64,000 nt of DNA from an uncultured virus (IMG/VR IMGVR_UViG_3300021961_000027) (Duplodnaviria > Heunggongvirae > Uroviricota > Caudoviricetes): the IMG/VR virus record IMGVR_UViG_3300021961_000027; one strand, 5' to 3'. Positions 20,027 to 41,788 of the stretch are shown piece after piece. The notes under the pieces are model-generated. The model searched no databases. It saw only the letters and a program-made list of their open reading frames with translations, and had not been told where the DNA came from. The first letter of the stretch is position 1; every line of letters begins with the position of its first letter. Both the position numbers and the translations under genes were made by a program.

Positions 20027-20545
20027 TTATACATTCTGCATTCTATTTACTAGTATATCTGATCTTGTGCGATCCATGAATGTGAGAGGTATTTGCCAAT
20101 TGAAGTCTTTGTGTTTGAGTTTTCTATTTAATCTAGTTTCGACGCATGGAATGCATAGAAATTTATCTACATCTTTTCCGGCGGCTTTTTTCCATACTTT
20201 GTGTTGTAGCATATAGCCATATTCACCAATATCGTACACATTAATCATACAATCGTGGCAGCAACCGCTCATGGCGCTACGATTTTGTATACATGAGTCG
20301 AATATAAGAATGAGTAATTCTTGTGTATTTGCGGTGGGGTTGTCTTTTGTTACATTAATAACAATTTGTGCTGTTTCTAGTGCGACAACTTCGTCACGAA
20401 TGCGTAGTTTCCTCGAAACATCATCGTGAATGACTGTGTAGTCATGTATATTATTTTTTGCGAATTCAATAGCTTGAATGATCCTTGGGATCTTTCTGAT
20501 GAAGAATTCGATTGCTTTTGAGACACTTGCTAATTTCCTATTCAT
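20027..20545 (-). CDS. hypothetical protein with C-terminal CxxC pairs
   Basis: CHDC...YMLQHKVW...LCIPCVETRLNRKL. Confidence 0.7.
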   Translation of the reverse strand: MNRKLASVSKAIEFFIRKIPRIIQAIEFAKNNIHDYTVIHDDVSRKLRIRDEVVALETAQIVINVTKDNPTANTQELLILIFDSCIQNRSAMSGCCHDCMINVYDIGEYGYMLQHKVWKKAAGKDVDKFLCIPCVETRLNRKLKHKDFNWQIPLTFMDRTRSDILVNRMQNV

Positions 20546-21159
20546 TTGACTTTCCTTTTTTTTCTTTTGTAGCTGATCTTGAAAATGCTGCTTAGTTTGT
20601 AGGATACAGCAATTTTCCTTAATGAGGGGTAGTGGACCGTGTCATTGTTATTAATTTTTGCTTGTCGTTGTCTATCGAGCCAAGCAGCGAATTTTCTTTC
20701 TTCTGGGTCTTTGCTTTTGAGAAAGGGTAATCTTTTGTTTGTTGTGATGAATTGGCAGACTTTGTGGCATATTTGTTCTGCTCTTTCTTGGTAGTTTGTG
20801 GTATCGAATAGATTTGTGAGGTTATATTGGTTTGCGATGTTTTGCAGGAAGTCATAATGTATTGCATTTCCATTTGACTTCTTAGCTTGTCTTTGGACGA
20901 TGAGCCAAGCTCCTAGTTGTGCTTCTTCTTTATCTTTTGATTTCTTTTTGGGTATTCTGTTATTTTGAATAGTGAATTGGCAGACTTTGTGGCATATTTG
21001 TTCTGCCTTTTCTTGATTGGAAGCAAGAAGGTGGTCTAATTGTTCTTTTTGAAAAGTTTCCATGATAGAGTTTGGGAGTTCGCCTTTAGCTTTAAGGTGT
21101 CTCCATTGGTACAATTTGGTTTTCATTTTATTTGTCAAGTGTCTGGTTTGGAGCTTCAT
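20542..21159 (-). CDS. helicase-associated (HA)-like repeat protein, 2 repeats
   Basis: F...NRIP...KD.EE..LGAWL..QRQAK repeats. Confidence 0.7.
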   Translation of the reverse strand: MKLQTRHLTNKMKTKLYQWRHLKAKGELPNSIMETFQKEQLDHLLASNQEKAEQICHKVCQFTIQNNRIPKKKSKDKEEAQLGAWLIVQRQAKKSNGNAIHYDFLQNIANQYNLTNLFDTTNYQERAEQICHKVCQFITTNKRLPFLKSKDPEERKFAAWLDRQRQAKINNNDTVHYPSLRKIAVSYKLSSIFKISYKRKKRKVK

Positions 21160-21989
21160 GCTTTGTCCTTTGTGTCGAAAAGGTGTGGCAATCCGTAGGA
21201 TTCTGCGATCTTTTGGTCAGATTCGTAAAATTTACGACGATTTCCTACTCCTTTCTTGGCTTGGCGACGATTATAAAGAAAAGCGCCTAATTTCTTTTCT
21301 TCTTCATCTTTTGCCTTGCCAGAAGGAAGTCTATTATTAGTATTGTAGAATTTGCAAACTTTAATTGTTCTTTCATTAGAAAGTTGTTCTGGGTCAATTT
21401 CTTCGAAAAGGTGTGGCAATCCGTAAGATTCTGCAATCTTTTGGTCAGATTTGTAGAATTTAGATTTTCCCAGTCCTTTCTTAGCTTGGCGACGATGGCT
21501 GATAAACTCTCCTAATTTCTTTTCTTCTTCATCTTTTGTATATCTTGAAGGAAGCCTATTATTAGTCTTATAGAATTCACAAACTTTAATTGTGTTTTCA
21601 TTGGAAAGTTTTTCTGTATCAATTGCAATTGAACCAAAAATGGTTGGCAATCCATAAAATTCTAAGACCTTTTGGTCAGATTCGTAAAATTTAAATTTGC
21701 TTAATCCTTTCTTGGCTTGGCGACGAGTATTAATAAAGCTAGCTAATTTCTTTTCTTCTCGATCTTTTGCTCTTGTAGAAGGAAGTCTATTATTAATTTT
21801 ATGAAATTCACAAACTTTCTTTGTGTTTTCATTAGAGAGTTGTTCTTTGTTGTAAAACAAATGAATCAAATTCTCTTTCTTGAGAGAATTAATTTGTTCA
21901 TTTGTTAACAATCCAGAAGCGTATTGTTTTTTAAAATACTGGAGTTTGTTTGCAAGTCTATCAGGTAGATGTTTCACTTCAAGTTGCAT
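21156..21989 (-). CDS. HA-like repeat protein, 3 repeats
   Basis: SNE.T.KVC.F...NNRLPS...KD.EEKKL..F...RRQAKKG...FY.SDQK three times. Confidence 0.75.
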   Translation of the reverse strand: MQLEVKHLPDRLANKLQYFKKQYASGLLTNEQINSLKKENLIHLFYNKEQLSNENTKKVCEFHKINNRLPSTRAKDREEKKLASFINTRRQAKKGLSKFKFYESDQKVLEFYGLPTIFGSIAIDTEKLSNENTIKVCEFYKTNNRLPSRYTKDEEEKKLGEFISHRRQAKKGLGKSKFYKSDQKIAESYGLPHLFEEIDPEQLSNERTIKVCKFYNTNNRLPSGKAKDEEEKKLGAFLYNRRQAKKGVGNRRKFYESDQKIAESYGLPHLFDTKDKA

Positions 21990-21992
21990 GTT

Positions 21993-22805
21993 CTAACTCC
22001 TACTCTCAAACAAGTTCGGAAATCCATAAGATTCTGCGATCTTTTGATCTGAATCATAAAATGTATATTTTTTCTTTTTCTTGGCATCACGGCGAGTTAA
22101 AAGAAAAGCACCTAATTTCTTTTCTTCTTCATCTTTGGAATATTTCGAAGGAAGCCTACTATTAGTCTTGTAGAATTCACAAACTTTCTTTGTGTTTTCA
22201 TTAGATAATTTTTCTATATCAATTGGATCAAAAAGTTTTGGCATCCCGTAAGATTCTGCAATCTTTTGATCTGATTCGTAAAATTTGGATCTTCCTACTC
22301 CTTTTTTTGCGCTACGCCGTTTGCCTATAAATGAACTTAATTTAAATTCTTCTTGATCTTTTGAATGGCAATACGGAAGTCTATTGTATAGTTTGTAAAA
22401 TTCACAAACTTTTTTTGTGTTTTCGTTAGAAACTTTTTCTAGGTCGATTGAAATAAAAAGGTTTGGTATGCCAAAAGATTCTGCAATCTTTTGGTCTGAT
22501 TCATAAAAGTTTCCTCTTTTACCTTTCTTGGATAAACGACGAGAACTCATGAATTTGGCCATCTTTTTTTCGTGTGTGTCTTCAGAATCTGGAGTAGGAA
22601 ATCTGTTATGTTTCTTGACAAACTCACAGAGTTCTGTAGTTTTATAATTTGAAGTTTGTTCACTGTTAAAAAGCAAGTGTAACAAATTTTCTTTTTCAAA
22701 TGTATTGATATAATCTTTTGGTAAAAGTCCTACGGCGTATTGTTTTCTGTAATACTCCAGTCTAATTCTCATTTTAGGAGGCAAATGTTTTACTTCAAGT
22801 TTCAT
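21993..22805 (-). CDS. HA-like repeat protein, 3 repeats
   Basis: Same repeat of about 75 aa three times; GGAGG SD; follows motif copy 6. Confidence 0.75.
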   Translation of the reverse strand: MKLEVKHLPPKMRIRLEYYRKQYAVGLLPKDYINTFEKENLLHLLFNSEQTSNYKTTELCEFVKKHNRFPTPDSEDTHEKKMAKFMSSRRLSKKGKRGNFYESDQKIAESFGIPNLFISIDLEKVSNENTKKVCEFYKLYNRLPYCHSKDQEEFKLSSFIGKRRSAKKGVGRSKFYESDQKIAESYGMPKLFDPIDIEKLSNENTKKVCEFYKTNSRLPSKYSKDEEEKKLGAFLLTRRDAKKKKKYTFYDSDQKIAESYGFPNLFESRS

Positions 22806-22833
22806 GTGGCACCTCCATGTTTACCGGCATCAG

Positions 22834-22859
22834 TAACAAACGATTATTCGATTATCGCA
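22834..22859 (-). promoter_or_regulatory. 26-nt junction motif, copy 6 (divergent)
   Basis: TGCGATAATCGAATAATCGTTTGTTA; contains the upstream gene's stop. Confidence 0.7.
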
Positions 22860-23901
22860 TGGATTTTTTCAGGCCGAATAATCGGGGAAGGCCGTAAGAT
22901 TCTGCGATTTTAATGTCAGAATCATAAACTTTGCCTCTACGAGTTCCCTTAAAATTAGCCCTTTTTTTCTTCATAAATTCTGCTAATTTCTTTTCGTGCA
23001 GATCAGAAGTTTTAATTCTTGGTAATCTTTTATTAGCGATTATAAACTCACAAGATTCTTTAACTTTTTGATTTGATATAGCTTCAAAATCAATTTTTTT
23101 AAAGAGATCTGGAATTCCAAAAGACTCTGCAATCTTTTGGTCTGATTCATAGAATTTAAGTCTTCGTGTTCCATTTTTGGCAGCACGCTTAGTACGGAGG
23201 AAGTATTCCAATTTCTTTTCTTTTTTGTTTTTACTTGATTTGTATGGATTTCTTCCGTATTTCAATATAAATTTGCAAGATTCAGTTGTTTTGTCATTAG
23301 ACATCCTTTCAAGGTTTTTCATATCAAATATTTTGCCAAGACCGAAAGACTCTGCGATCTTTTGATCTGATTTGTAGAAAGTAACATTGCCTTTTCCTAA
23401 TTTAGCTCGACGCTTATGAACTAGGAAATACGCTAATTGTTTTTCAGAAGCATCTTTGGAATTTTTAGTAGGCAATTTGTTATTATCATTAACAAAAGTG
23501 CATAGTTTTGTTATCATTTCATTTGATATTTTTTCCAAGTCTTCTTGTTCAAATAAGTTTGGGAGTCCGTAAGATTCTGCAATTTCTTGTTCTACAGGGT
23601 AGAATTTGGCTTTGCCTTTGCCTATTTTTGCACGGCGTTTAGTGCAATGAAAACGAGACAATCTTTTTTCTTCTGCCGAATTACTTTTAAGTGGAAATCT
23701 GCCTGTTTCCTTTACAAATTCGCATAATAACTTTGTATTTTCAATTGATGCTTCTTCTCTTGTTTTAAAGAGGTGCATGAGATCTTCGTTAATCATTGCT
23801 TTGAGTTGATCGCTTGGCAGTTTATTAGTGATATATTGGCGTTTCAAGGTAGACAATTTTTTACGATACTTAGTAGGCAGGTGTTTTCGTTGCAGTTTCA
23901 T
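22852..23901 (-). CDS. HA-like repeat protein, 4 repeats
   Basis: Same repeat four times (FY.SDQKIAES.G.P.LF). Confidence 0.75.
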   Translation of the reverse strand: MKLQRKHLPTKYRKKLSTLKRQYITNKLPSDQLKAMINEDLMHLFKTREEASIENTKLLCEFVKETGRFPLKSNSAEEKRLSRFHCTKRRAKIGKGKAKFYPVEQEIAESYGLPNLFEQEDLEKISNEMITKLCTFVNDNNKLPTKNSKDASEKQLAYFLVHKRRAKLGKGNVTFYKSDQKIAESFGLGKIFDMKNLERMSNDKTTESCKFILKYGRNPYKSSKNKKEKKLEYFLRTKRAAKNGTRRLKFYESDQKIAESFGIPDLFKKIDFEAISNQKVKESCEFIIANKRLPRIKTSDLHEKKLAEFMKKKRANFKGTRRGKVYDSDIKIAESYGLPRLFGLKKSMR

Positions 23902-23945
23902 ATAATTCCTTTTATATAGTACTGCGCTGTCTAGTCAAAATAGTA

Positions 23946-23979
23946 TCAGCAGCACGGTCATTATAGGCCGTGCTGCTGA
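23946..23979. terminator. GC-rich hairpin, terminator-like
   Basis: TCAGCAGCACGGTC-ATTATA-GGCCGTGCTGCTGA. Confidence 0.6.
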
Positions 23980-23999
23980 AAAAGTAAGTTTAATATGGT

Positions 24000-24191
24000 T
24001 TAGTCTTGGAAGCCGACGATTTTGACGATAACATCATTTTTAAGAAGTTCTTCTACTTCGTTTTTTTTAAGTTGTGATCCAACTCTTGGTTCAAGGATAT
24101 TAGTGAGAGAGATAACCTCGTAAGTCGGATCATCTTTTGAGTTTTTGAAGGATATCAGTTGTCGCAATGTAATCTTGAGTTTCATGTTCAA
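24000..24191 (-). CDS. hypothetical protein
   Basis: 63-aa ORF with AGGAG SD. Confidence 0.55.
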   Translation of the reverse strand: MNMKLKITLRQLISFKNSKDDPTYEVISLTNILEPRVGSQLKKNEVEELLKNDVIVKIVGFQD

Positions 24192-24457
24192 TCTCCTTTG
24201 TTCAAATCGTGTAGGCTGAATTCATGAATGCTAAGTAGAAAGTATTCTTTGGCCATTCTATGCCAATCGCCGGGAGAGAGCAAGTTTTTTGTCGGATTAT
24301 CTTTTTCTCCCATAAAGTTATTAACAGCAACTTCTATTGAGAATAACAATTCAGGTATAACAGATGAATCTTTATTAGATCTAAACTTTTCAATTTGATC
24401 TTTGACCAAATTGAAAAGTTTTAAATCTGTTTCAGTTTGTGAATTTGGAGTATTCAT
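24188..24457 (-). CDS. hypothetical protein
   Basis: 89-aa ORF. Confidence 0.6.
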   Translation of the reverse strand: MNTPNSQTETDLKLFNLVKDQIEKFRSNKDSSVIPELLFSIEVAVNNFMGEKDNPTKNLLSPGDWHRMAKEYFLLSIHEFSLHDLNKGD

Positions 24458-24486
24458 ATAATTAAAAATCCTTAGTGGATATAAAA

Positions 24487-24684
24487 TTATTGATTAAGGG
24501 CAGTCATTCTCTTTTTGACGAATTCATAGATAGCATCATGGAACGCATCGCAATCTAGAGCACTTTTTGCTTCTTTTGAGTCTCCATGAATGAAAATCTC
24601 TGCGACATCCATGCTATCATCATTTTCATATTCATAAACAAATGGCATGTTACCAAAAGTAAAGCTGCTAGAAACACTAACCAT
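24487..24684 (-). CDS. hypothetical protein
   Basis: AAGGAG SD; preceded by RNA element copy A. Confidence 0.65.
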   Translation of the reverse strand: MVSVSSSFTFGNMPFVYEYENDDSMDVAEIFIHGDSKEAKSALDCDAFHDAIYEFVKKRMTALNQ

Positions 24685-24697
24685 TTGATTCTCCTTA

Positions 24698-24745
24698 AAC
24701 CTAGGTGGTGTGCCCTAGGGTTTTATTATTCCCCACACCGGGATT
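24698..24745 (-). ncRNA. two-hairpin kissing-loop element, copy A
   Basis: TCCC-GGTGTG-GGGA...CCTAGG-GCACACCA-CCTAGG. Confidence 0.6.
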
Positions 24746-24750
24746 AAAAA

Positions 24751-25035
24751 TTAAACTTGATGGTTTTCGCAGCGAGTGTTTTCGCAGCGATACACCAGCT
24801 TGCCTTTATCCAATTGATAACTTACTCCAAATGCACAGATGGAACAATCTCCAACATTTAAAGTATTATTCCATCCTTGCTCAGCTAGAAAAATCTCCAA
24901 GAACTGTTTCAAAGCTTCGGGATGCTTCTCGCCCAACTTGGCAAGAGAATCAACAACAGCTTCCAACTTGTTTTCGTCATCCCAAGAAATCAAATTGAAC
25001 ATTTTTTCAACAGGACTAAGATTTTGAGTAGCCAT
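24751..25035 (-). CDS. hypothetical protein with C-terminal Zn-ribbon-like motif
   Basis: CSIC...CENTRC; AAGGAG SD; preceded by RNA element copy B. Confidence 0.7.
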   Translation of the reverse strand: MATQNLSPVEKMFNLISWDDENKLEAVVDSLAKLGEKHPEALKQFLEIFLAEQGWNNTLNVGDCSICAFGVSYQLDKGKLVYRCENTRCENHQV

Positions 25036-25056
25036 GAAAACACACTCCTTAAAAAT

Positions 25057-25103
25057 AACCTAGGTGGTGTGCCCTAGGCTCGGTTTATCCCCACACCGGG
25101 ATT
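25057..25103 (-). ncRNA. two-hairpin kissing-loop element, copy B
   Basis: ATCCC-GGTGTG-GGGAT...AGCCTAGG-GCACACCA-CCTAGGTT. Confidence 0.6.
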
Positions 25104-25126
25104 CATTCTAAATATTCCAACTAATC

Positions 25127-25312
25127 CTATCGAATCTTATCTTGCAAAAGTTTTTCAACATCTTTTGCAGAGACAGTCGAGAACATCCAGTTCATCCTAA
25201 TATCATTGAATTGCTGGATATTATCCTTAAGAAATTCAAGAGAATTTCTAATAATATCCAACTCTTCGTTGGTCAAATTAATAACAACTTCATCAGCAAC
25301 ATTAGTAGCCAT
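25127..25312 (-). CDS. hypothetical protein
   Basis: AAGGAGG SD. Confidence 0.65.
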   Translation of the reverse strand: MATNVADEVVINLTNEELDIIRNSLEFLKDNIQQFNDIRMNWMFSTVSAKDVEKLLQDKIR

Positions 25313-25346
25313 AACAAATCCTCCTTAGAATAAAAAACCTAGTAAA

Positions 25347-25889
25347 TCAAGAAATTGCAGAAACCTCATCTTCACAATCACTACAGGACTTTCGCAAAAT
25401 ATGCAAAATATCACAAAGTTTGTCATGAGAAATATCATCAAGGTTTATAGTAACATCTTGTATCATGTGCCATCCGGTAAGAGTATTGATCTCCTCAATA
25501 CAATCATTTAAAGGCAATTGTAGTAGATGTGATAAACATTCCATTGTCATTTCATCTACGGCTTCATCGCTAAGCTCTAAAATGTAATGATTAGAAATAT
25601 TATTACGCTTAGAACCGAGTTCTTTAGGCTTTACTACTTTGCCATTTTTGGGAAATGCTTTCCTATCATTTTCATCATAAAATCCAATCAAGGGTCTGTT
25701 TGGCCAAGACACATCATTCACTGTGTCAATTGGCACATGTGCATTTTCCTTGGGACTATAGGAAGTGCAATTTTCCAACCAATAGCTTAGAATGGTGTTC
25801 CAATAATTAATTTCTACAAAAAGTTCAACATTCACAGTGCCATTGTTATTAGACGAAATCGATACTTTGAAATTAGAAACAAAATTCAT
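25347..25889 (-). CDS. hypothetical protein
   Basis: AAGGAGG SD; downstream of motif copy 7. Confidence 0.75.
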   Translation of the reverse strand: MNFVSNFKVSISSNNNGTVNVELFVEINYWNTILSYWLENCTSYSPKENAHVPIDTVNDVSWPNRPLIGFYDENDRKAFPKNGKVVKPKELGSKRNNISNHYILELSDEAVDEMTMECLSHLLQLPLNDCIEEINTLTGWHMIQDVTINLDDISHDKLCDILHILRKSCSDCEDEVSAIS

Positions 25890-25951
25890 ATTAAATCCTC
25901 CTTAAAAAATTTTTACTTACCACACAGCGAGTTTTTTACGCCTTACATCTG

Positions 25952-25977
25952 TAACGAACGCCGACTTGATTATCGCA
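25952..25977 (-). promoter_or_regulatory. 26-nt junction motif, copy 7
   Basis: TGCGATAATCAAGTCGGCGTTCGTTA. Confidence 0.8.
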
Positions 25978-25982
25978 TGGAC

Positions 25983-27056
25983 TCAGGGGCTGGCTTTTGC
26001 AGCCATGAAATCTTTTCCGCACAATATTTCACAACATTCGAAATACTCCCCACTTTCAGTCTTGCAAGACTTAGCAAGCTTTTCGACAAAGCTCTTCGAA
26101 AGCTTTCTGCCGTAGCTTTTGAATATCATTTGAATTACCTTGGTATTATATTCCCTTTTGAGACTGCTATAACCTTTTGAAACACCCATAAACTCTTTCA
26201 AGAGTTGCAGTTTTTCAGATGGTTCCAAAGAATTCAAATAAGCTTGGTAAATAGCTGGTCTGTTATATTTAGTCAGCATATATCGACCAAGTTCACAAAT
26301 TCTATTAGTAGATCTCATATCAGAAGAAATTACAATTTCTTCGAAAACATCAAAGAATTCATTTCCAAACGCATTGAACATGTTATCAACAAGATTATCA
26401 CTTGAGGATAAAAGAATAAAATTACTTCGACTCAAATAAGGCGAAGTGAAGCAGCTATTAACTATAGCTTTATACATATCACGCCTTGTCAACATAAAGT
26501 TGAATCTGTTGCAAAATTGCACAAAGTTTGCTTCAGAGTCTGGAATATAGGAATTTTCTCTACAATAATAGTCTTCAATAACCTTACGGTTTTCTTCAAA
26601 CCATTCTGGAGAAAGGCAGCTAGCATAATTAAAAGTATGAACAGAATAAGTACTTGTCCAGTCAATAGGATGATAATAAATACGAAGCTCTGCCACTTTT
26701 GCAGCATTTGCAAGCCAACTATTGTACTTTTCAGCATCAGCCGGATTAATATCAAAAAGCCTACTCATTATTTTGGAATGAAAATTGGCCAAACTAGAGT
26801 TAATCCGTTCAAATATTTTTTCAAGGACTTCCCACTTGCCATTTTGCTTAAGCTTATTAAAATGCTTATACAGCTTTTTCATGAAAGGGCTAACATCATA
26901 ATCATTAGCTTCCATGTGTTGGATAGCTTTCTGAATATCCTTTTGGGCAATATGACCTTTGTAGTCCCTCATGATGTTCATGAGGACTTCATCGCCATTT
27001 TTCTCAATCAAGCTTTCAGCAAACTTTTGAACCAGAACTTCTTTGTGACTTGCCAT
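25983..27056 (-). CDS. hypothetical protein
   Basis: Likely start MASHKEV after AAGGAG; flanked by identical 38-bp repeats. Confidence 0.8.
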   Translation of the reverse strand: MASHKEVLVQKFAESLIEKNGDEVLMNIMRDYKGHIAQKDIQKAIQHMEANDYDVSPFMKKLYKHFNKLKQNGKWEVLEKIFERINSSLANFHSKIMSRLFDINPADAEKYNSWLANAAKVAELRIYYHPIDWTSTYSVHTFNYASCLSPEWFEENRKVIEDYYCRENSYIPDSEANFVQFCNRFNFMLTRRDMYKAIVNSCFTSPYLSRSNFILLSSSDNLVDNMFNAFGNEFFDVFEEIVISSDMRSTNRICELGRYMLTKYNRPAIYQAYLNSLEPSEKLQLLKEFMGVSKGYSSLKREYNTKVIQMIFKSYGRKLSKSFVEKLAKSCKTESGEYFECCEILCGKDFMAAKASP

Positions 27057-28083: not shown

Positions 28084-28109
28084 TAACAAATGCCGATTCG
28101 ATTATCGCA
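28084..28109 (-). promoter_or_regulatory. 26-nt junction motif, copy 9
   Basis: TGCGATAATCGAATCGGCATTTGTTA; contains the sigma gene stop. Confidence 0.8.
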
Positions 28110-28719
28110 CAGATTTTTTTTTGGGCTTGGGCTTGACTGTTGGGCCATGCACCATCACTCTCATGTTCCGTATGGCGGCTTTTACTTTATTGTGGATGTT
28201 CTGTTTCGAGCATCCCAGCGCCGTCGCCACATCTTGGAGTGCGATCCCGTCAGCCGATGATAACAAAGCAGCTTTTTGTGCTGGGATTAGCTTCTGCAAT
28301 AATTTTCTATATGTTTCTACAATCTCTACCATCTCTCCTTCTTCAGGAGGATCTTCGATAGCTAGAGGATTATATTTTAAGTGGGTTGGCTGAGATGCCA
28401 TAATGTTATCTAAAGAATAGAAACTATTATTTAAATTTTTATTGCCTGAATTGAATCTTTTATAAATATCTATTCTGCAACGAAAGAAGCTAGTGACACA
28501 GTAAGTGCTGAATGAGTTTCCAAGAGTTGGATCATAAAACCTGCAACATTGGCATAATCTTTCATATAGGAATGATTTATATTCTGATTTTGATATCCTT
28601 AGATTTCTAATAGGATAACGCTTAACAAACCATTCGACTAAGCGAATGTTTTGTGAGGCAAGTTCTTTTTGTTCGGCGGTTAATGGTTGCATTGCAATCA
28701 TTTTAGGATCAACCGGCAA
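28102..28719 (-). CDS. sigma-70-family RNA polymerase sigma factor (regions 2 and 4)
   Basis: NIRLV...YDPTLGNSFSTY (region 2); LQDVATALGCSKQNIH HTH (region 4); start may be 28701. Confidence 0.82.
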   Translation of the reverse strand: MPVDPKMIAMQPLTAEQKELASQNIRLVEWFVKRYPIRNLRISKSEYKSFLYERLCQCCRFYDPTLGNSFSTYCVTSFFRCRIDIYKRFNSGNKNLNNSFYSLDNIMASQPTHLKYNPLAIEDPPEEGEMVEIVETYRKLLQKLIPAQKAALLSSADGIALQDVATALGCSKQNIHNKVKAAIRNMRVMVHGPTVKPKPKKKSVR

Positions 28720-32330: not shown

Positions 32331-33026
32331 ATGGGGCTATATCATAATCCTAGTTGTGTCACAGATGGTTTAGTTCTTGCATTAGATGCTGCCAATCGAA
32401 GAAGTTATTCAGGCACAGGTACAAATTGGAGCGACATAAGTACAAGTTTAAATAATGGAACATTAACAAACGGCCCAACATATGGCAGTACAAATGGCGG
32501 AATAATAAGTTTTGATGGCCTTGATGATTTTGTACAAGTAAATTCATCAAATAATTTTCCTAGTGGAAGTGCAGCTAGGTCAATATGTATAGCTTTTATA
32601 CCTACACAAATAAATGTAAGAAGAAACTGTTTGTTTTTTCATGGTAATGTTGATATTAATCAAGGATTTATGGTTTCATCGCATACAGATGGCAAAAGAA
32701 CGCAAGTTCAAGCGTACAGCAACCAAGCCTCAGCGTACAGTAATACAGACTGGGTTGTAAATAAGCTTAATCATATTGTTGTAACATTTAATGGAACAAC
32801 TATTACTTATTACATCAATGGAGTGGCTGATGGCACAGCTACTTTTTCCACAACAATAAACACAGTAAACAGCGTCAATCCAAGAATTGCATCTTACCCC
32901 TCTGGATGGGGCGGAGAAAGTCCATCACAAGGCCAAATTGGAAGTATATTTATGTACAATATTTGTTTAACAGCATCACAAGTACAACAGAATTTCAATG
33001 CTTTGAGAGGAAGGTTTGGTATTTAA
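32331..33026 (+). CDS. LamG/ConA-like protein, array member 1
   Basis: GLVLALDAAN..SYSG.GT.W.D...NGPT...FDG; ends QNFNALRGRFGI. Confidence 0.85.
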   Translation: MGLYHNPSCVTDGLVLALDAANRRSYSGTGTNWSDISTSLNNGTLTNGPTYGSTNGGIISFDGLDDFVQVNSSNNFPSGSAARSICIAFIPTQINVRRNCLFFHGNVDINQGFMVSSHTDGKRTQVQAYSNQASAYSNTDWVVNKLNHIVVTFNGTTITYYINGVADGTATFSTTINTVNSVNPRIASYPSGWGGESPSQGQIGSIFMYNICLTASQVQQNFNALRGRFGI

Positions 33027-33727
33027 TGGCTGTTGCTTACAATCCTACAATATTAGTGAATGGGCTAGTATTGTGTATTGATGCTGCAAATATTAAATCA
33101 TATCCAGGTTCTGGCACTGCTTGGAACGATATCAGTTCAAGTGGTAATAATGCAACACTTGTAAATGGACCTACATTTTCTTCGGCTAATGGAGGCTCTA
33201 TTGTTTTTGATGGAATAAATGATTATGTGACAACAGTAACAGCATCATCTTTAGGTATTAATTCTACATCTACACCTTTTACTATATCGAGCTGGTTTAA
33301 AACATCTGGATCAGGCGAGTATTATCTTTTTGATAATTATGATAACAATGGACTTTTTGAGGATATTAGTTTAAGAGTTGACGGCGGTGTCATGGAAATT
33401 GTTATGATTGCAAGCACATCTGGAAATACTGGGGCATTACGCTATGGTTCTGGGTATAACAATAATGCATGGCATAACTTTGTTATGACATGGAATGGGT
33501 CAAATACTATTTCTGGATTTGCAGATGGCGTAAATATTGGATCAACAACTGCTTACACTTTTTCTGGAAGTTTTGACTCTGACACTGCGTTTTGGATAGG
33601 GCAAAGACCAAATACTGTTGCTTGGTTTCCAGGCAATATTGCACAAACATCTGTATATAACAGAGCTTTAAACCAATCAGAAATAGCAGTAAACTTCAAC
33701 GCATTAAGAGGTAGGTTTGGCATATGA
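33026..33727 (+). CDS. LamG/ConA-like protein, member 2
   Basis: Start MAVAYNP (TAATG overlap); same terminal motifs. Confidence 0.85.
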   Translation: MAVAYNPTILVNGLVLCIDAANIKSYPGSGTAWNDISSSGNNATLVNGPTFSSANGGSIVFDGINDYVTTVTASSLGINSTSTPFTISSWFKTSGSGEYYLFDNYDNNGLFEDISLRVDGGVMEIVMIASTSGNTGALRYGSGYNNNAWHNFVMTWNGSNTISGFADGVNIGSTTAYTFSGSFDSDTAFWIGQRPNTVAWFPGNIAQTSVYNRALNQSEIAVNFNALRGRFGI

Positions 33728-33939
33728 AAACTTTTTATGAGTATGTTTATGAAAGGGATTTGTTAGAAGCAGAAAGTCCTAAAAAAAAGATTCTGAAAAA
33801 AGCTGCTCTTGCAGGCGCAAACTTTTTAGCTCAGTTTATGGTTCCTCCTGAAGAAAAAGCATTAGCCAAAAGACAAAATCAAAAACCTCAACAAAATATT
33901 TCTGCTCCTCAAGCAGCGGTTGTTAAAAAAGTAGCCTGA
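33724..33939 (+). CDS. small putative capsid-internal protein
   Basis: MKTFYEYVYERDLLEAE. Confidence 0.65.
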   Translation: MKTFYEYVYERDLLEAESPKKKILKKAALAGANFLAQFMVPPEEKALAKRQNQKPQQNISAPQAAVVKKVA

Positions 33940-33955
33940 TTTCTATGATAATTGA

Positions 33956-34654
33956 ATGAAAACTAAAGCGCATTTCATTCAAGGATCATATCCAAAACAA
34001 GAATTGATTAGAGAATTTTTATCCTATGATGTTCAAATTCCTGAACTTTGTGTGTTACAACCAATTAATGAATTTGGTACGTTAACATTGGCTTTAGTAT
34101 CAACAATGCATTGGTCTAGACAATATGAGTTGGGCTGGGCAATTGATGTAGCCAACTTACAAAAAGACGATATAGTACTTGATGCTGGCTGTGCTTATTC
34201 AACAACTAAATATGCTGCTGCTAAAAGATGTAAAAAGGTAGTTGGAATTGACTTGTCTGAAGATTATCTAAAAAAGGCAAGAAAAGGATGTGATATACTT
34301 GGAATTAATAATGTAGAGTTGCATAAAGCTGATATTGCAAAGTATAAATCATGGAATAAGTTTGATAAAGTATTTTGTCTATCAGTATTAGAGCATGAGC
34401 CAGACGAGGAAAACAAGTATAAATGTATCGAAAATATGATTGACTTATTGAAACCGGGAGGTTTTTTAATTTTAAGTTATGATATTATTCGAGAGATCAA
34501 ACCACAAGTAGATTTTTTTATAGATCAAAGAATTTCTGACACTATTCTCAAAATGTTGGAACAAGAAAGATTGGTGTATGGGGAAGCACCATTTAGCGGA
34601 ACTGTAGGCGATCACACTCTTGTAACGGTTTGTTGTGCTTATCAGAAAAACTAA
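33956..34654 (+). CDS. class I SAM-dependent methyltransferase
   Basis: VLDAGCA, VGIDLS, FDKVFCLSVLEH, LLKPGG. Confidence 0.9.
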   Translation: MKTKAHFIQGSYPKQELIREFLSYDVQIPELCVLQPINEFGTLTLALVSTMHWSRQYELGWAIDVANLQKDDIVLDAGCAYSTTKYAAAKRCKKVVGIDLSEDYLKKARKGCDILGINNVELHKADIAKYKSWNKFDKVFCLSVLEHEPDEENKYKCIENMIDLLKPGGFLILSYDIIREIKPQVDFFIDQRISDTILKMLEQERLVYGEAPFSGTVGDHTLVTVCCAYQKN

Positions 34655-35367
34655 ACGCTAAATCTTCCTCTCAAAGCATTGAAATTTTGTGATACTTCTG
34701 CTGCTATCTGTTTATAAGCATAAATTTTAAATGCACTTATTGAACAATTTAAAAAAGCTCCTGTTCCTCCTCTGCTGGCCAAATACATAATTGCATTAGC
34801 AAAAGATCCACCGGCAGATGTATCGGTAGTAGTTGGGTAGCTTATAGCAGCAAAACTTTGCAGAGAACCGTTTGTGTAAGTAAGCCTACCTGTGGCATCA
34901 GATATTATTGAATAAATATTGACATGAGAATTCCAAGTTGTTCCCATAGCAAATAAATAGTTTCGAGCAATTTCAGTATTATGGTTTGTATGCAATAAAT
35001 TAGTATATTGTGTGCCGCCAGTGCTATTTGTATACAAGCCAAGCCCACCAGCATTAGTGTTCCAATTAGTTGTATGTTCAAAAGCCATTCCATCTACTGT
35101 GTTATTACATTTTAACCATATCTCAATAGTAACAGATGAATAAGAAGTAAAGTTTAAATTATTATTTGAAGCAGCGTAATCATTTACCCCGTCAAATGTT
35201 ATTGCTCCGTTGCTATAAGTTGGCCCATTATAAAGTGTAAAATGGTTTCCGTTTCCGCTTAAATCATACCATGCTGTGCCAGAACCTGGATAACTTCTAC
35301 TATTTGCAGCATCTAGATATAATAACAATCCTGTAGTGGTAACTAATGGGTTGTGACTAAGTGCCAT
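34651..35367 (-). CDS. LamG/ConA-like protein, member 3
   Basis: Conserved N- and C-terminal array motifs. Confidence 0.85.
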   Translation of the reverse strand: MALSHNPLVTTTGLLLYLDAANSRSYPGSGTAWYDLSGNGNHFTLYNGPTYSNGAITFDGVNDYAASNNNLNFTSYSSVTIEIWLKCNNTVDGMAFEHTTNWNTNAGGLGLYTNSTGGTQYTNLLHTNHNTEIARNYLFAMGTTWNSHVNIYSIISDATGRLTYTNGSLQSFAAISYPTTTDTSAGGSFANAIMYLASRGGTGAFLNCSISAFKIYAYKQIAAEVSQNFNALRGRFSV

Positions 35368-36041
35368 TAAACACCAAACCTTCCACGAAGGGCAGTAAAG
35401 TTTTTATCAAAATCAGAGACAGTTAAAGCGGTGGAATATACTGCTGATGTAGCAATTCTACCTATCAAATATCTGCCAGGGTCGGCAAAAGTATTTAAAT
35501 TAGCTCCAATCGTCGTAGCGGAGTGTGAGTAGGCACGAACAGAACTACTTCCGTTTAAATAGAAGAGTGCTGTTGATGGCGATACAGCCAGCCCGCAAAA
35601 ACACCAAGAGTTTGTTGGTAACGTTAAACCAGAAGAATTGTAATTATAAGTATTAGCATCATCATTCCAGTGGTATCCTAAAGCGTTGCCACTTTGACTA
35701 AAACTCATACCAGTCGTGCTACCGCTGGCTCCTCGGTTAAAAATTATTCCCGTGTAGCTTGATGTGCCTGAAAAATAAAACCAACCAGCAAAACTAAGAG
35801 ATGTATACGAAGAATTACCCATGTTCAAATTAGCATAAGCGTATGTTGAATTTATGTAGCCGCCGTTGCTTGATGAATAAGAATAAGAACCACCAGCAGG
35901 AAAAGTCAAAGTAGCATTTCTGCCTTGTCCTGTTAAGTCAATTAAAGTAGCTCCAGAACCCGGATAACTTTTACTATTAGCAGCATCTAAATAAAATAAT
36001 AATCCTGTAGTGGTAACTAATGGATTGTATCCAATAGCCAT
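35367..36041 (-). CDS. LamG/ConA-like protein, member 4
   Basis: Conserved N- and C-terminal array motifs. Confidence 0.85.
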   Translation of the reverse strand: MAIGYNPLVTTTGLLFYLDAANSKSYPGSGATLIDLTGQGRNATLTFPAGGSYSYSSSNGGYINSTYAYANLNMGNSSYTSLSFAGWFYFSGTSSYTGIIFNRGASGSTTGMSFSQSGNALGYHWNDDANTYNYNSSGLTLPTNSWCFCGLAVSPSTALFYLNGSSSVRAYSHSATTIGANLNTFADPGRYLIGRIATSAVYSTALTVSDFDKNFTALRGRFGV

Positions 36042-36712
36042 TAAACACCAAACCTTGCTCGTAAAGCATTAAAGTTTTGAGATACTTCTGCTGCAGACAG
36101 TACCCTATTGTATACTGAGGCATTTGCTATTCTGCCTGTCAAAACATTTGTGCCAGTGCCGTAAGCACCTAATAATATTTCGCCTTGGCCTGCTGTAAAT
36201 TGAGTTGTGTTTGCACTTGTTCCACTTGCAGAGCCGTTTATGTATATTATCCATCCGGTTGCACTGCTAAAAGTAACACCTATGTAGTACCATGTATTTA
36301 AAGACAAAGTCGAAGTAGATTGAACGGTAAACCATGAACCATTATGCCCAGCATAAACAATATTTGTTTGGGCTAAAAACAGAGCATGATTAGTGCCTAA
36401 GTTTCCACCGCTTATTATATTATTTCCAGTTCCAAATGACGTAAAATAACACCACGCTAGTTTAGTATAAGTGCTATTTGACATGATGCTGGCATTAGAA
36501 TTAATAAGCACACAGTCATTTACGCCATCTAATGCAATATAACCACCATTTGCAGAAGAATAAGTAGGTCCGTTAGTGAGAACTCCAGTGTTATTTTGAC
36601 CACTTAAATCAAACCAGTTGGTACCAGATCCAGAATAGCTTCTGACATTAGCAGCATCCACATTTAAAATCATTCCATTTGTAACGATGCTTGGATTATG
36701 AAATAAACTCAT
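36041..36712 (-). CDS. LamG/ConA-like protein, member 5
   Basis: Conserved N- and C-terminal array motifs. Confidence 0.85.
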   Translation of the reverse strand: MSLFHNPSIVTNGMILNVDAANVRSYSGSGTNWFDLSGQNNTGVLTNGPTYSSANGGYIALDGVNDCVLINSNASIMSNSTYTKLAWCYFTSFGTGNNIISGGNLGTNHALFLAQTNIVYAGHNGSWFTVQSTSTLSLNTWYYIGVTFSSATGWIIYINGSASGTSANTTQFTAGQGEILLGAYGTGTNVLTGRIANASVYNRVLSAAEVSQNFNALRARFGV

Positions 36713-38028
36713 ACGCCGAACCTACCTCTCACAGACTGATAGTTTTGTGCAATTTCAGAACTTGAAAGTGCTCTATTATAAATTGCAACTCTCGCAACAT
36801 TTCCCAAAAGTTGTGATTCTGCCGTATTTATAGTGTATTCTCCTCCTATTCTCATATCACAAGTTGGCGCTGCTACAGTGCCTGTAAAACTTGTTGTGTG
36901 TACTTGAACACCATCGTAGAAAAGATACATATTTTTTGTTGAATTATTAAGAACACCGGCAACATAATGCCATGCATTATCTCCATTGGTGGTGCCAAAT
37001 TTATTTTTTGAAAATGTCCCAGCATAATTTGATGTTGTGCCTGTTTGATATGTTAAAACCATTTGATCAGCACCAGTTGGGTTCCATTCTCTAACTACCT
37101 GTCTGTTGTCTATTGCTATGGCAAAAGTTTGTAGATAGTCGCTGTTATTTCTATTAATAACGAATAAAACAGCACTTGCCCCAATGCTTCCAACTTTGGC
37201 CCATACTTCAACTGTATGACTTCCAGACGAAATATATGTTGATGAATATGGAACTCTTACAACATCGTTGACTCCATCAAAGACTAAAGTAGCTGGCCCT
37301 GCGGCTCTAGTTACTGTACTTGAAGTAGTTAGCATAGGCGATGTAGCAAATGAACCAAGTTCGCATTGCGCTCCCCAAATATGATATGTCTCTGTACCGA
37401 CGCTAGAAACATTTGAGTTTCCTGGGGGAGTTGTATCTGATGCTCCAAGTAATTGGACTCTGGCGGAACTTTGTGGCAAAGCTCCCATTATTGCTTGTAC
37501 TCTATACCAACCATTGCCTGCCGCATTGATATAACCAGTAGCGTTACTAGATGAAAATACAGTAACAGATGTTAAATCGAACCCAACTCTACTGGCTCCG
37601 TAGCTACCTTCACGAATCCAAAAATATCTTGCTCCGCCGGTTGGTTTAACAAAACAAGATATAGTTACTATTGATGAGGTAGGATAATTTATATAACCTC
37701 CTGTTACTCCCTTGTAAGTAGTAGCAGTAGAAGACAGTGTAAAATACGAAGCAGTAATTGTGCCGTTTGGCGCTGTTTCGCTACTGGCCCCTACTGTAAC
37801 AAAAGATTGAGAGTAATAGGCATTTGTTACATCATTGCTATATAAGTTTCCATTTGTTCTGGAGTCGTAACCATTGAAAGTAGGACCGTTAGTTAATGTT
37901 CCGTGATTGCCTAAACCACAAAGATCCGTAAAAGTAGTACCATAACCTGGATAGCTCTTAGTGTTGCCAGCATCCAGACAAAGTACTAAACCATTTGTTA
38001 CCATATTTGGATTATGATATAGACTCAT
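36709..38028 (-). CDS. LamG/ConA-like protein with inserted head-spike/fiber-like domain, member 6
   Basis: Insert of about 190 aa (GNGWYR, IWGAQCELG..ATS...VTRAA) between NGPTF and FDGVND. Confidence 0.8.
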   Translation of the reverse strand: MSLYHNPNMVTNGLVLCLDAGNTKSYPGYGTTFTDLCGLGNHGTLTNGPTFNGYDSRTNGNLYSNDVTNAYYSQSFVTVGASSETAPNGTITASYFTLSSTATTYKGVTGGYINYPTSSIVTISCFVKPTGGARYFWIREGSYGASRVGFDLTSVTVFSSSNATGYINAAGNGWYRVQAIMGALPQSSARVQLLGASDTTPPGNSNVSSVGTETYHIWGAQCELGSFATSPMLTTSSTVTRAAGPATLVFDGVNDVVRVPYSSTYISSGSHTVEVWAKVGSIGASAVLFVINRNNSDYLQTFAIAIDNRQVVREWNPTGADQMVLTYQTGTTSNYAGTFSKNKFGTTNGDNAWHYVAGVLNNSTKNMYLFYDGVQVHTTSFTGTVAAPTCDMRIGGEYTINTAESQLLGNVARVAIYNRALSSSEIAQNYQSVRGRFGV

Positions 38029-38711
38029 ATTCCAAACCTTCCTCTGTTTGCATTAAAGTTTTGCAATATTTCAGTTGCAGAAAGGGATCTATTATAAACT
38101 TTAAATATTGCACAGTTCATTGGCATTTCGTATCCAGTACTATATCCCCATAATGCTATTCTTCCCGAGCCGCTATTAAAAGTACGAAAAGAAAGATTTT
38201 CTGAGCCAGTTTGTTGTGATAGTGATTGCGAAACTGTGTTAATATAAATTTTATTATTTGTATATGCAACATCACTTCGCATTTCAAAAATATATTGTTT
38301 CCAGTTGCCTACACAACCTAAGCTTGTTACTGTTGCTGCTGATATCCCATATACATCACCATTCCCTGTATTGTATCCGATGGTGCCAGTCCAACAATAA
38401 ACATCGTAAGCAGACCAGCCCATCATCATTTTTCCACTAAATCCTGCGCCTAAATTAACCCACATTTCTACACTTGCAGTTGTTGTTAAATTAGGCGCAT
38501 AAAAGTCTGCATAATCATTTACACCATCAAATGTAATGTAACCAGAATTAGAAGAAGAAAATGTTGGGCCGTTTACTAAACTTGAAACGCCATTAAAAGT
38601 AGATATGTCTCTAAAATTTGTACCACTGCCGGGATAACTCTTTATATTTGCTGCGTCTAGGCAAAGCACTAAGCCATTTGTTACCATATTTGGATTATGA
38701 TATAGACTCAT
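38025..38711 (-). CDS. LamG/ConA-like protein, member 7
   Basis: Conserved N- and C-terminal array motifs. Confidence 0.85.
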   Translation of the reverse strand: MSLYHNPNMVTNGLVLCLDAANIKSYPGSGTNFRDISTFNGVSSLVNGPTFSSSNSGYITFDGVNDYADFYAPNLTTTASVEMWVNLGAGFSGKMMMGWSAYDVYCWTGTIGYNTGNGDVYGISAATVTSLGCVGNWKQYIFEMRSDVAYTNNKIYINTVSQSLSQQTGSENLSFRTFNSGSGRIALWGYSTGYEMPMNCAIFKVYNRSLSATEILQNFNANRGRFGI

Positions 38712-39412
38712 ATACCAAACCTGCCTCTAAGCGCATTAAAGTTTTGTGATACTTCATTAGCAGATATGGCTCTATCGTAGACGTAAATCACTGCTATCCT
38801 TCCTGCAAAATTGTAAGCATTTAGCACGCTGTTTGGGCCTCCTATTCCCAAATTGGTTAATGAAGAAGCTGTTCCTGGAAAATTTGCCGTAGTTGAGGCG
38901 AATAATGAATCGTTTTTATAAACTCTCATAGTTGTAAAATCACAGGTCATAGTTATATTAATCCATGTATTTAAAGGTTCTGAAATATTCTGTGATATAT
39001 TCCATCTATTTGCGGAAGTTGCAATATTGAAATAATCAATCGATCCGCTATCATTCAGTAGCAAGTCTACTCCTTGATTGTTGCCTCCACCAGATGTTGA
39101 AAAAACGTATTGACTTGCTCCAGTGCTTGTTGGATAAATCCACACTGATACAGTTATCCCCGATGTAGATCCTGGATTTGTTAAAAGTGTGTTTCCAATA
39201 TTGCTTATTGTTGCATAATTAGTGCTTGAAAAAGTTAAGTATCCTCCATTGCCAGAATTATATGTTACTCCAGCAGTCATTGAAGCTGCAAAACGATTTA
39301 ATCCCATATCGGTCCAAGTAGTACCAGCACCTGGATATGATTTCACATTTCCTGCATCTAAAGACAGATATAATCCATTAGAAGTAACAAAAGGATTGTA
39401 TCCAATTGCCAT
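38708..39412 (-). CDS. LamG/ConA-like protein, member 8
   Basis: Conserved N- and C-terminal array motifs. Confidence 0.85.
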   Translation of the reverse strand: MAIGYNPFVTSNGLYLSLDAGNVKSYPGAGTTWTDMGLNRFAASMTAGVTYNSGNGGYLTFSSTNYATISNIGNTLLTNPGSTSGITVSVWIYPTSTGASQYVFSTSGGGNNQGVDLLLNDSGSIDYFNIATSANRWNISQNISEPLNTWINITMTCDFTTMRVYKNDSLFASTTANFPGTASSLTNLGIGGPNSVLNAYNFAGRIAVIYVYDRAISANEVSQNFNALRGRFGI

Positions 39413-40098
39413 TAAACACCAAACCTGCCTCTAAGCGCATTAAAGTTTTGTGAAACTTCTGCTGCTGTCAAGACTTTGTTATAAATTTGTACTGCAGAAA
39501 TGCTGCCTGCAAAAAATCCTATTCCTCCATTTATGCTTCCTATTGTCATAGTAGTTGGAGAAGTTAAGGATTGTGTTCCGCCACTTGTTACAGCACTTAA
39601 AATTCCATTAACATATAAAGACAAAGATCCAGAAGCTTTTATTCTGGTGCCGACAGCATAAGTCCATGTGTTTGAATTATAAGTTGCAGAACTTACAGCG
39701 GTCCTATCCGGATTGCCCGTTCCAAACATTAGTTTTCCTGCTCCTAGAGATAGTCCATAATCATTTACTACACTACCAACTTCGCAATCAACTAATCCTC
39801 TGCCATTGTACCATTGATCAGCGGTGCCAGCATTTTGTGTTGACTTAAACCAACAGCAAAGAGAAAAATCGTCCTGTACTGGCCTTGTTAATACTGCATA
39901 ATCATTTACACCATCAAATGTAAAAAATCCTCCATTTGATGATGAAAAAGTTGGGCCATTTGTAAGGGTAGAGTTATAATTTCCACCAGCTATATCATTC
40001 CACGCAGTACCAGTGCCAGAATATGATCGTGTATTTGCAGGATCAAAAGCTGCTACTAATCCATTTGCAGAAATACTAGTGTTATAAGCTATTGCCAT
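39412..40098 (-). CDS. LamG/ConA-like protein, member 9
   Basis: First gene of the - block; GAGGAG SD and TAAATA at 40116-40121. Confidence 0.85.
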   Translation of the reverse strand: MAIAYNTSISANGLVAAFDPANTRSYSGTGTAWNDIAGGNYNSTLTNGPTFSSSNGGFFTFDGVNDYAVLTRPVQDDFSLCCWFKSTQNAGTADQWYNGRGLVDCEVGSVVNDYGLSLGAGKLMFGTGNPDRTAVSSATYNSNTWTYAVGTRIKASGSLSLYVNGILSAVTSGGTQSLTSPTTMTIGSINGGIGFFAGSISAVQIYNKVLTAAEVSQNFNALRGRFGV

Positions 40099-40194
40099 AA
40101 ATTCTCCTCATACCCTATTTACTTTGAAAAATTGCTTATTTTATTGAATTTTTCAAATTAAAGTCTATAATGTGGGAAGCATGAGGAGACACCG

Positions 40195-40737: not shown

Positions 40738-40749
40738 GATAAATAAATT

Positions 40750-41373: not shown

Positions 41374-41407
41374 TTGAATCGTTTGTTCCATATGTTTATA
41401 ATATGGA

Positions 41408-41788
41408 ATGGAGAATTGGCATGATAACTATGGAATGGAGAAAGTTTGTAGAAGTTGTAGCATTGTCAAAAATATAGAAGAGTTTCCTTTCTTTAGTACA
41501 TCAGAAGCTGGTAGAAAAAATACTTGCAAGGAATGCACTAAAAAGCTTGTTAATCTAAGAGCAAAACTCAAATCTGAAAATCCTATTCCTCCTCCCGGCA
41601 AGTGTCCTATCTGCAATTTAATGACAAACTCATGGATTTTAGACCATTGTCATTTCACAAATAAGTTCCGTGGCTATATCTGTAATAGCTGTAATTTAGG
41701 CATCGGCAGATTTAATGATGATGTCAATTTATTGATGAAAGCTATAGAATATTTAAAATCTGATGACTACGAAGATTACTGTATTTAA
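41408..41788 (+). CDS. endonuclease VII domain protein (possibly homing-type)
   Basis: CPIC...LDHCH.T.K.RG..C.SCN.G.G.F.D plus N-terminal CxxC pairs. Confidence 0.85.
   Translation: MENWHDNYGMEKVCRSCSIVKNIEEFPFFSTSEAGRKNTCKECTKKLVNLRAKLKSENPIPPPGKCPICNLMTNSWILDHCHFTNKFRGYICNSCNLGIGRFNDDVNLLMKAIEYLKSDDYEDYCI

Follow-up and report, generated by a model that had tools for sequence, protein, structure and literature searches.

What is the sequence that recurs at two successive junctions between small genes of an uncultured tailed virus, and what might it do there? It lies at positions 24698 to 25103 of a stretch of 64,000 nucleotides (nt) from IMG/VR record IMGVR_UViG_3300021961_000027, referred to below as the window, and it reads on the minus strand as two short hairpins with complementary loops. 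The comparative evidence presented here strongly indicates that this element is a real, uncatalogued RNA motif with a sound, covariation-supported structural model. The alignment of its relatives shows a predicted fold of ~50 nt composed of hairpin 1 (4-5 bp, 6-nt loop), a linker of 9-12 nt and hairpin 2 (6-8 bp, 8-nt loop), and in this model loop 1 is paired over its full six bases with a six-base part of loop 2. The element combines features of known kinds, namely intercistronic terminator-type modules, mobile regulatory cassettes and kissing-loop RNAs; its role as a cassette boundary is demonstrated by the comparison of related contigs, and its function is one that we infer.

The first copy, W1, occupies positions 25103-25055 and the second, W2, positions 24745-24696, as read over 24400-25500. 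Hairpin 1 of W1 (25087-25102) consists of the stem AUCCC/GGGAU around the loop GGUGUG (25097-25092), and is present in both the minimum free energy (MFE) and the centroid fold. An 8-nt spacer (25086-25079) separates it from hairpin 2 (25059-25078), in which two CCUAGG arms enclose the loop GCACACCA with CACACC (25071-25066) as its kissing part. Immediately 3' of hairpin 2 lies the U-rich tract UUAUUUUU (25051-25058), followed by the Shine-Dalgarno (SD) sequence AAGGAG (25050-25045) and the ATG (25035-25033) of an open reading frame (ORF) of 94 amino acids (aa). In W2, hairpin 1 (24730-24743) has the stem UCCC/GGGA around the same loop (24739-24734), the spacer is 10 nt long (24729-24720), and hairpin 2 (24700-24719, kissing part 24712-24707) again consists of CCUAGG, GCACACCA and CCUAGG; both hairpins are present in the predicted fold. 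Here only UUU (24699-24697) comes right after hairpin 2, before AAGGAG (24696-24691) and the ATG (24684-24682) of a 65-aa ORF. W1 thus lies between ORFs of 61 aa (25127-25312) and 94 aa (24751-25035), and W2 between the latter and the ORF of 65 aa (24487-24684). All three genes of this 24487-25312 region are on the minus strand and are small ORFans, for which the Pfam scan revealed no family. The duplicated two-hairpin arrangement had been noticed in a first-pass annotation made from the letters alone, and both copies are as described there. That annotation also stated that the linker differs between copies; it does so in sequence but not in length, which hardly changes.

The 20-nt hairpin-2 string is found at exactly two places in the 64 kb, and no extra match appeared in the window even when up to three mismatches were allowed; two matches were obtained in none of 100 shuffles. 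The 12-nt hairpin-1 string is likewise confined to W1 and W2, and taken alone it is within chance (10 of 100 shuffles gave at least two matches at up to two mismatches). A covariance model (R1) built from four copies was then run over the whole window with filters off. It gave two strong matches, W2 with 74.8 bits and W1 with 72.2 bits, and the next best match scored 12.3 bits (E 0.16). This last match, at 25905-25932 on the minus strand, is probably a decayed third copy, in which a hairpin-1-like stretch and an A-rich linker remain, hairpin 2 is cleanly missing, and UUUUUU, AAGGAGG and an ATG follow. It precedes the ORF at 25347-25889, whose homolog in the relative L028 has an intact element in front. 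RNAfold predicted both hairpins (about -6 kcal/mol for hairpin 1 and about -10 kcal/mol for hairpin 2), and the six-pair loop duplex was predicted at -7.8 kcal/mol. In W1 only, and in L028, a GUGUGU (25039-25044, minus strand) placed right after the SD sequence is complementary to loop 2; the MFE structure of one folding window used this pairing, burying the SD and start, and that of another did not.

In IMG/VR the exact hairpin-2 string was found on one contig of 181 kb, which carries two intact copies and one decayed copy at three consecutive small-ORF junctions. A second IMG/VR search, which specified the stems and let the loops vary, returned seven loci, of which only the known 181-kb contig belongs to the family; the other six are unrelated hairpins and hence provide no unbiased sample of loops. 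Metagenomes were scanned with a pattern that specified hairpin 1 and loop 2 but left the outer part of the stem of hairpin 2 free. This yielded 75 loci, several of them multi-copy, including one contig with seven copies within 3.1 kb, and model searches over the pattern loci gave 109 matches at E values up to 0.01. Family counts were based on a rebuilt model (R2) at E values up to 1e-7, for which ~1.5 kb of flank was scanned per locus. They comprise 77 copies (72 distinct) in 47 of 73 loci; left out were 16 loci repeating the same contig stretch or sequence and ten with weak, G+C-rich or stem-less pattern matches. One locus (L029) is identical to positions 23204-26600 of the window. The family is one of large, uncultured, low-GC freshwater phages.

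Nine G+C-rich matches (L018, L026, L059, L079, L081, L092, L093, L095 and L098; 13-27 bits) were treated as chance because all are low-scoring and the first five lie inside long open frames. Locus L031 scored 23.0 bits and has a possible CUUCGG/CCGGAG stem, but at the end of an ORF, and neither L091 nor L097 had a model match at E 0.01. Stem-less matches of the type of L036, L058 and L084 (37-39 bits) were also left out of the counts. L050, a 53% GC contig with a match of 26 bits that was not counted either, looks like a true member with different stems.

The proposed fold was evaluated on the 72 distinct rows for 17 pairs, made up of hairpin 1, hairpin 2 (seven pairs) and the six loop-loop pairs. 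In total 96.5% of the cells were paired, as compared to 89.7% in shuffles, and none of 500 shuffles reached the observed value. When the 3' partners were shifted by 1-3 columns pairing dropped to 35-50%. Changes on both sides of a pair were observed at ten of the 17 pairs. In hairpin 1 they affect three of the four pairs (CCC/GGG to CAC/GUG, U-A to C-G) and in hairpin 2 four of the seven, where the closing G-C is replaced by A-U or U-A, and CCUAGG/CCUAGG alternates with CCAAGG/CCUUGG (UA/AU in 41 versus 30 rows). The loop-loop helix is 99.5% paired, with two-sided changes at three of its six pairs, a degree of loop invariance that is partly by construction because the search pattern fixed both loops. 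The loops fall into the classes GGUGUG/CACACC, GGUGCG/CGCACC, GCCGUG/CACGGC and GGUGCG/CGCACU, together with GGUGUG/CACGCC, which contains one G-U pair.

Fifteen flank copies were recovered by the model alone; as the loop-loop pairs are not part of that model, these copies constitute the unconstrained rows. All six loop-loop pairs are kept in 14 of them: five have the standard loops, two have the wobble combination GGUGUG/CACGCC, and seven are changed on both sides (GGUGCG/CGCACC three times, GCCGUG/CACGGC three times and GGUGCG/CGCACU once). The first-pass annotation had named homologs that break the loop complementarity as the outcome that would speak against its view; what these rows reveal is complementarity retained, in half of the retaining copies by compensatory change. 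Matched variant loops adjoin standard copies within the same contigs, which argues that the pairing occurs within an element and not between neighbours, and the linker length is compatible with such an intramolecular kiss. The linker is 9-12 nt long in the 72 distinct copies (10 nt in 49 of them), free in sequence but A-rich (50% A) and G-poor, and only two unpaired loop bases are conserved. The tolerance of G-U pairs and the constant orientation with respect to the genes indicate that the structure is one of RNA rather than of duplex DNA. Together these results agree with the early suggestion of a cis-acting RNA selected for its structure and containing kissing loops.

The absence of the element from the Rfam families, also suggested at the outset, was confirmed at three levels. 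Only two tRNAs reached the gathering score when Rfam 15 was run on the window; a search of 24650-25150 at E values up to 10 returned five irrelevant weak matches, the best being a nematode snoRNA (E 0.045); and no matches were obtained for 20 related loci (47.5 kb).

The position of the element with respect to genes is highly constrained. In 49 of 69 contexts the stop codon of the upstream ORF lies 3-9 nt before the start of the model, and in 55 of 69 it lies within 12 nt. On the other side, a same-strand, SD-led start is found 10-22 nt past the end of the model in 63 of 71 contexts; in every one of the eight contexts with a more distant start a same-strand gene follows, and none of these eight elements faces a convergent gene. 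No conserved -35/-10 sequences were detected within the element or in the 60 nt upstream or the 40 nt downstream of it (68 contexts); further upstream, conservation is limited to an AU-rich spacer, and sigma-70-like promoter matches around the window copies were at shuffle level (21 versus 21.7). The element had initially been read as a device in the 5' leaders of two genes; the family data point instead to an intercistronic module that precedes many unrelated ORFans.

Hairpin 2 has a mean energy of -10.2 kcal/mol and is followed by a U tract across the family. Positions +2 to +6 after the hairpin contain T in 66-82% of cases, as compared to 26-33% at the corresponding positions before 188 other SD-led genes in the same loci, and a T run of at least four precedes 61% of 57 element-led genes versus 16% of those 188. 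Of 71 copies, 59 have at least three T within the five nt that follow the stem. In addition, W1 was called terminator-like by a scan (minus strand, 25080-25057 plus ATTTTT). Hairpin 2, the A-rich linker and the U tract taken together look like the anatomy of an intrinsic terminator.

The element is also a recombination junction. When 80-nt flanks were compared among 66 distinct contexts (2145 pairs), both flanks were shared in four pairs, only the upstream flank in ten and only the downstream flank in 17; in 27 of the 31 related pairs the similarity of the contigs therefore ends within the element. L028, for instance, matches window positions 25327-24700 at 89% identity; at the W2 element, where it contains a GCCGUG/CACGGC copy, its similarity moves to 25909-25856 and it continues with the homolog of the window ORF 25347-25889. 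Depending on the pair, the alignments place the breakpoint within hairpin 1 or within hairpin 2. The comparison of contigs thus shows that, as a by-product, the conserved hairpin-1 and hairpin-2 blocks act as short homologies for the exchange of gene cassettes between phages.

We therefore favour a reading, to which we attribute about an even chance of being correct, in which the element may serve as a punctuation module of early polycistronic mRNA: a terminator-like hairpin clamped by a kiss and giving leaky termination or protection of 3' ends. The module would be transcribed within polycistronic messages of small ORFan genes and would fill the space between the ribosome stopping on the upstream gene and the ribosome starting on the next. 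Hairpin 2 and the U tract would constitute a weak intrinsic terminator or a 3'-end-forming hairpin, and the kiss from hairpin 1 would clamp its otherwise floppy 8-nt loop, stabilising hairpin 2 or speeding its formation. As a consequence of this combination the junction would attenuate read-through and/or provide the upstream message with a compact end resistant to 3' exonucleases, the end itself arising where transcription terminates or where the U-rich stretch is cleaved; in this form the early idea of a nuclease-resistant knot is retained as part of the reading. Meanwhile the ribosome-binding site (RBS) of the next gene would remain in an open, U-rich context.

Several observations weigh against this reading. 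The total folding energies of W1 and W2 are ordinary when compared with shuffles (z -0.37 and -0.28), and the support for the element comes from its relatives and not from thermodynamics. There is no promoter conserved beside the element; an efficient terminator would thus silence the downstream genes, and any effect must be partial or overridden. Fewer than three T are present in the first five nt after the stem in 12 of 71 copies, and W2 itself has UUU only. In addition, the same phage closes the element-bearing gene row with an ordinary long-stem terminator, so that a special terminator design is not obviously needed. As for the kissing helix, the remaining one of the 15 unconstrained copies (L019:384, GGUUGG/CACACC) breaks the loop pairing, and decayed copies exist as well. 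In 57 of the 72 rows the loops, both fixed by the pattern, could not vary. The covariation consequently rests on ~10 variant copies, and because these come from few contigs they represent few independent events.

A first alternative, which we consider unlikely though the most probable of the alternatives, is that the element would be a translation device with no role in termination or decay. Its fold might insulate each RBS from the sequence upstream, or fold and U tract might jointly provide a standby or S1-loading platform, setting the translation rate of the downstream cassette or uncoupling it from that of the upstream one. The location of the element directly upstream of a same-strand SD and start, in the large majority of contexts given above, fits such a device. 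The U tract between hairpin 2 and the SD, the fact that the SD itself is never paired in the element fold, and the AU-rich, G/C-poor flanks on both sides, which fit a self-contained fold, are also in line with it. However, roughly eight of the 71 contexts have either a start 31-79 nt downstream or an intervening stretch of other conserved non-coding sequence. The U tract is tied to hairpin 2 rather than to the SD, and the element is absent in front of most genes of these loci (188 of the 245 examined).

The genes next to the element provided information on the remaining alternatives. Of the downstream proteins scanned, 36 of 38 are without a Pfam family and the other two are pentapeptide-repeat proteins. 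The flanking genes are thus mostly ORFan cassettes, and probably early genes. One conserved protein of 105-108 aa is encoded directly before or after an element in 11 loci (L033:1568-1882, L034, L035, L063, L074, L078, L082, L096 and L100-L102). It has an Sm-like sequence pattern, but this lead was set aside as the Pfam and PDB matches are not significant (DUF2642, E 0.006-0.06; LSm6, E 1); its AlphaFold model, with a pLDDT of 46.6, is too poor to support a fold comparison, and no homolog of it was found in the window.

A second alternative, that the element would be a docking site for an RNA-binding protein or nuclease of phage or host, seems quite unlikely to us. Such a factor would read the stacked kissing complex or the hairpin with its U tail, with an RNase III-type processing site or the site of an Sm/Hfq-like binder as candidates, and would allow coordinated control of ORFans. 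Consistent with this possibility, sequence and structure are strongly conserved across phages with unrelated flanking genes, and helices of 4-5, 6 and 6-8 bp might stack into a quasi-continuous helix of ~17-19 bp; the 105-108 aa protein, with its weak Sm-like hints, would be a possible partner. Both the search pattern and recombination among the copies, however, inflate the conservation of sequence, a single contig carries several loop classes, which argues against a single sequence-specific reader of the loop, and the partner is compromised by its non-significant Sm-like call, its poor model and its absence from the window.

We regard as improbable a third alternative, a translation-sensing terminator in which hairpin 1 would lie where the mRNA enters a ribosome that pauses at the upstream stop codon. 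Hairpin 1 starts ~5-8 nt past that stop, the same spacing as that of recoding pseudoknots. A ribosome on the stop codon would open hairpin 1 and free loop 2, thereby switching off the terminator or 3'-end knot, and translation of one cassette would in turn govern read-through into the next or the stability of its message. Adjacent junctions would be prevented from cross-pairing by carrying different classes of matched loops. If true, this would be a Rho-independent form of polarity residing on a portable cassette junction.

A function at the level of DNA is very unlikely in our opinion. In single-stranded or supercoiled DNA the inverted repeats might form a site for site-specific recombination (like an integron attC), an N4-like hairpin promoter or an operator bound by a protein, and the covariation would then reflect symmetric half-sites, as symmetric changes of inverted repeats can mimic covariation. 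Same-orientation, promoterless small ORFs split by structured repeats are indeed reminiscent of integron cassette arrays, and the elements are recombination junctions. Breakpoints in either conserved block, however, fit homologous exchange at short blocks and not a single site-specific core. Moreover, three interleaved sets of complementary segments covary independently, G-U positions are tolerated, promoter-like spacing to a start site is not conserved, and no recombinase was identified among the 39 window ORFs scanned, a subset of those in the window.

The last alternative, a small self-cleaving ribozyme (an early suggestion) or a ligand-sensing riboswitch formed by the two kissing hairpins, is scarcely credible, since no Rfam family matches even at E values up to 10, the unconserved linker sequence and only two conserved unpaired loop bases leave no plausible catalytic core or ligand pocket, and dozens of unrelated ORFans follow the element, unlike a riboswitch regulon. 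The shape does recall the guanidine-II (mini-ykkC) riboswitch and pseudoknotted small ribozymes such as pistol, and RNAs of these kinds are common in phage and metagenome DNA. For pistol and other small ribozymes there was no family-model match in the Rfam scans and no conserved linker core. In mini-ykkC both hairpins carry ACGR tetraloops, which contact each other through only two paired bases in the ligand-bound state. Like guanidine-II, the present element consists of two small G+C-rich hairpins with contacting loops and a linker of free sequence, placed just upstream of an SD; its loops, GGUGUG (6 nt) and GCACACCA (8 nt), form six Watson-Crick pairs and its gene context is different. In cobalamin riboswitches a kissing loop connects the aptamer to the expression-platform hairpin (PMC5028336). 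It controls or stabilises this regulatory hairpin. The use of an intramolecular loop-loop helix that reaches the loop of a downstream regulatory hairpin is shared with the cobalamin riboswitches. The element differs from these in that it lacks a ligand-binding aptamer, the partner is a minimal 4-bp hairpin, and it is repeated before unrelated genes. The cobalamin and guanidine-II riboswitches are the closest in RNA design, and their defining features are absent from the element.

With respect to organisation, the closest known system is that of the promoter-early stem-loop (PeSL) cassettes of T4-type phages, in which an upstream stop codon is followed by a stem-loop and then by an SD and start (Arbiol et al. 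2010, PMC2839356). PeSLs lie in plastic ORFan regions, where they are points of homologous exchange and permit modular shuffling of cassettes (PMC2839356; Comeau et al. 2014, PMC4122927). Both they and the present element are recombination junctions with a terminator-type stem-loop that extends from the stop of a small ORFan to the next SD and start. Yet PeSLs are defined by a strong sigma-70-like promoter, whereas none is conserved here, and consist of one stem-loop without loop-loop pairing, whereas here two hairpins kiss; on these grounds the element is not a PeSL. The two also have no sequence relationship and belong to different phage lineages and habitats. With intrinsic terminators, intercistronic attenuators and 3' stabiliser hairpins, the element has in common a G+C-rich hairpin with a U tract, a preceding A-rich stretch and a location after a stop codon. 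It is unlike these in having a large 8-nt loop paired to a dedicated upstream hairpin, and in that the next RBS follows immediately with no promoter between. Structured signals at cistron junctions are also known from phage T7, where RNase III processing sites lie between the early genes. Those sites and the plastid intercistronic expression element (PMC2230500) resemble the present element as repeated, structured junction signals that give rise to stable translatable units, but they are single irregular hairpins or protein-binding sites, unlike the kissing pair. A description of the motif was not found in the literature searched; the supplements of a survey of 10,006 phage RNA candidates (PMC10690425) could contain it.

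If the punctuation-module reading holds, the element represents an uncatalogued family of structured RNA with clear loop-loop covariation, and a minimal natural case of a hairpin clamping a terminator-type hairpin by a six-base kiss. Mobile regulatory cassettes would then extend from T4-type coliphages to large freshwater phages, with a junction that is promoterless and RNA-structured. The element would also offer a modular part for synthetic operons, a compact spacer of ~50 nt between cistrons that folds by itself and whose matched loops can be exchanged, and a marker for plastic ORFan regions in phage metagenomes.

Other conserved non-coding sequences were observed near the element. A stretch of ~105 nt separates the element from the next start at L076:805-910 (plus strand), and the same stretch is present in L052 (minus strand) after the element at 2089-2139; in most copies this interval is limited to a U run and an SD. 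A second intergenic repeat motif, consisting of GTAC(A), then GGCGAAA(C/G) and often CUUAGUGGUGU, precedes the SD in L020 (minus strand, near oriented positions 141, 1251 and 2332), L022, L037, L043, L047, L057 and L088. It lies directly upstream of the kissing element in five loci; its folds vary and it has no match in Rfam.

The window is part of a large tailed phage, as judged from its Pfam and PHROGs identifications, which comprise cobS/cobT-like ATPase and VWA proteins, Hsp20, an SNF2 helicase, an RNA ligase of the T4 RnlA type and many Laminin_G_3 or baseplate-like structural paralogs. Its G+C content is 30-45% in 2-kb bins and ~35% around the element, and a blastn search with 23900-26000 against 50,697 deposited phage records gave no match. 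The row of genes that holds the elements is headed by a sigma-factor-like gene (28102-28719, minus strand; PHROG 351, E 2e-14, and a weak Sigma70_r4_2 match). Just 3' of the last small ORF of the row (24000-24191) there is a strong conventional terminator-type hairpin (23947-23978, minus strand) with an 11-bp stem and a 10-nt loop, followed by a T-rich stretch. True copies of the element were also present on two low-GC contigs in metagenome-assembled genomes binned as Phycisphaerales and Acidimicrobiaceae; these two assignments disagree, and phage DNA may have been mis-binned in both cases, so that no host is claimed. The gene at 59399-60475 (minus strand) encodes a protein with a prepilin-type N-methylation motif and DUF1559, a combination typical of Planctomycetota, which together with the Phycisphaerales contig gives a weak hint as to the host that the Acidimicrobiaceae contig contradicts.

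Further along the minus strand, four paralogous genes of 205, 277, 270 and 349 aa lie in tandem at positions 20542-23901. They are built from internal repeats and weakly match the helicase-associated (HA) domain and Mug135_C. The region 32331-49366 contains, on both strands, more than 12 neighbouring genes of 220-500 aa and looks like a large array of paralogs; several of those scanned have Laminin_G_3 domains and matches to baseplate or virion structural PHROGs. Finally, genes for tRNA-Thr(UGU) and tRNA-Lys(UUU) are located on the minus strand at 1095-1167 and 1452-1525, respectively.

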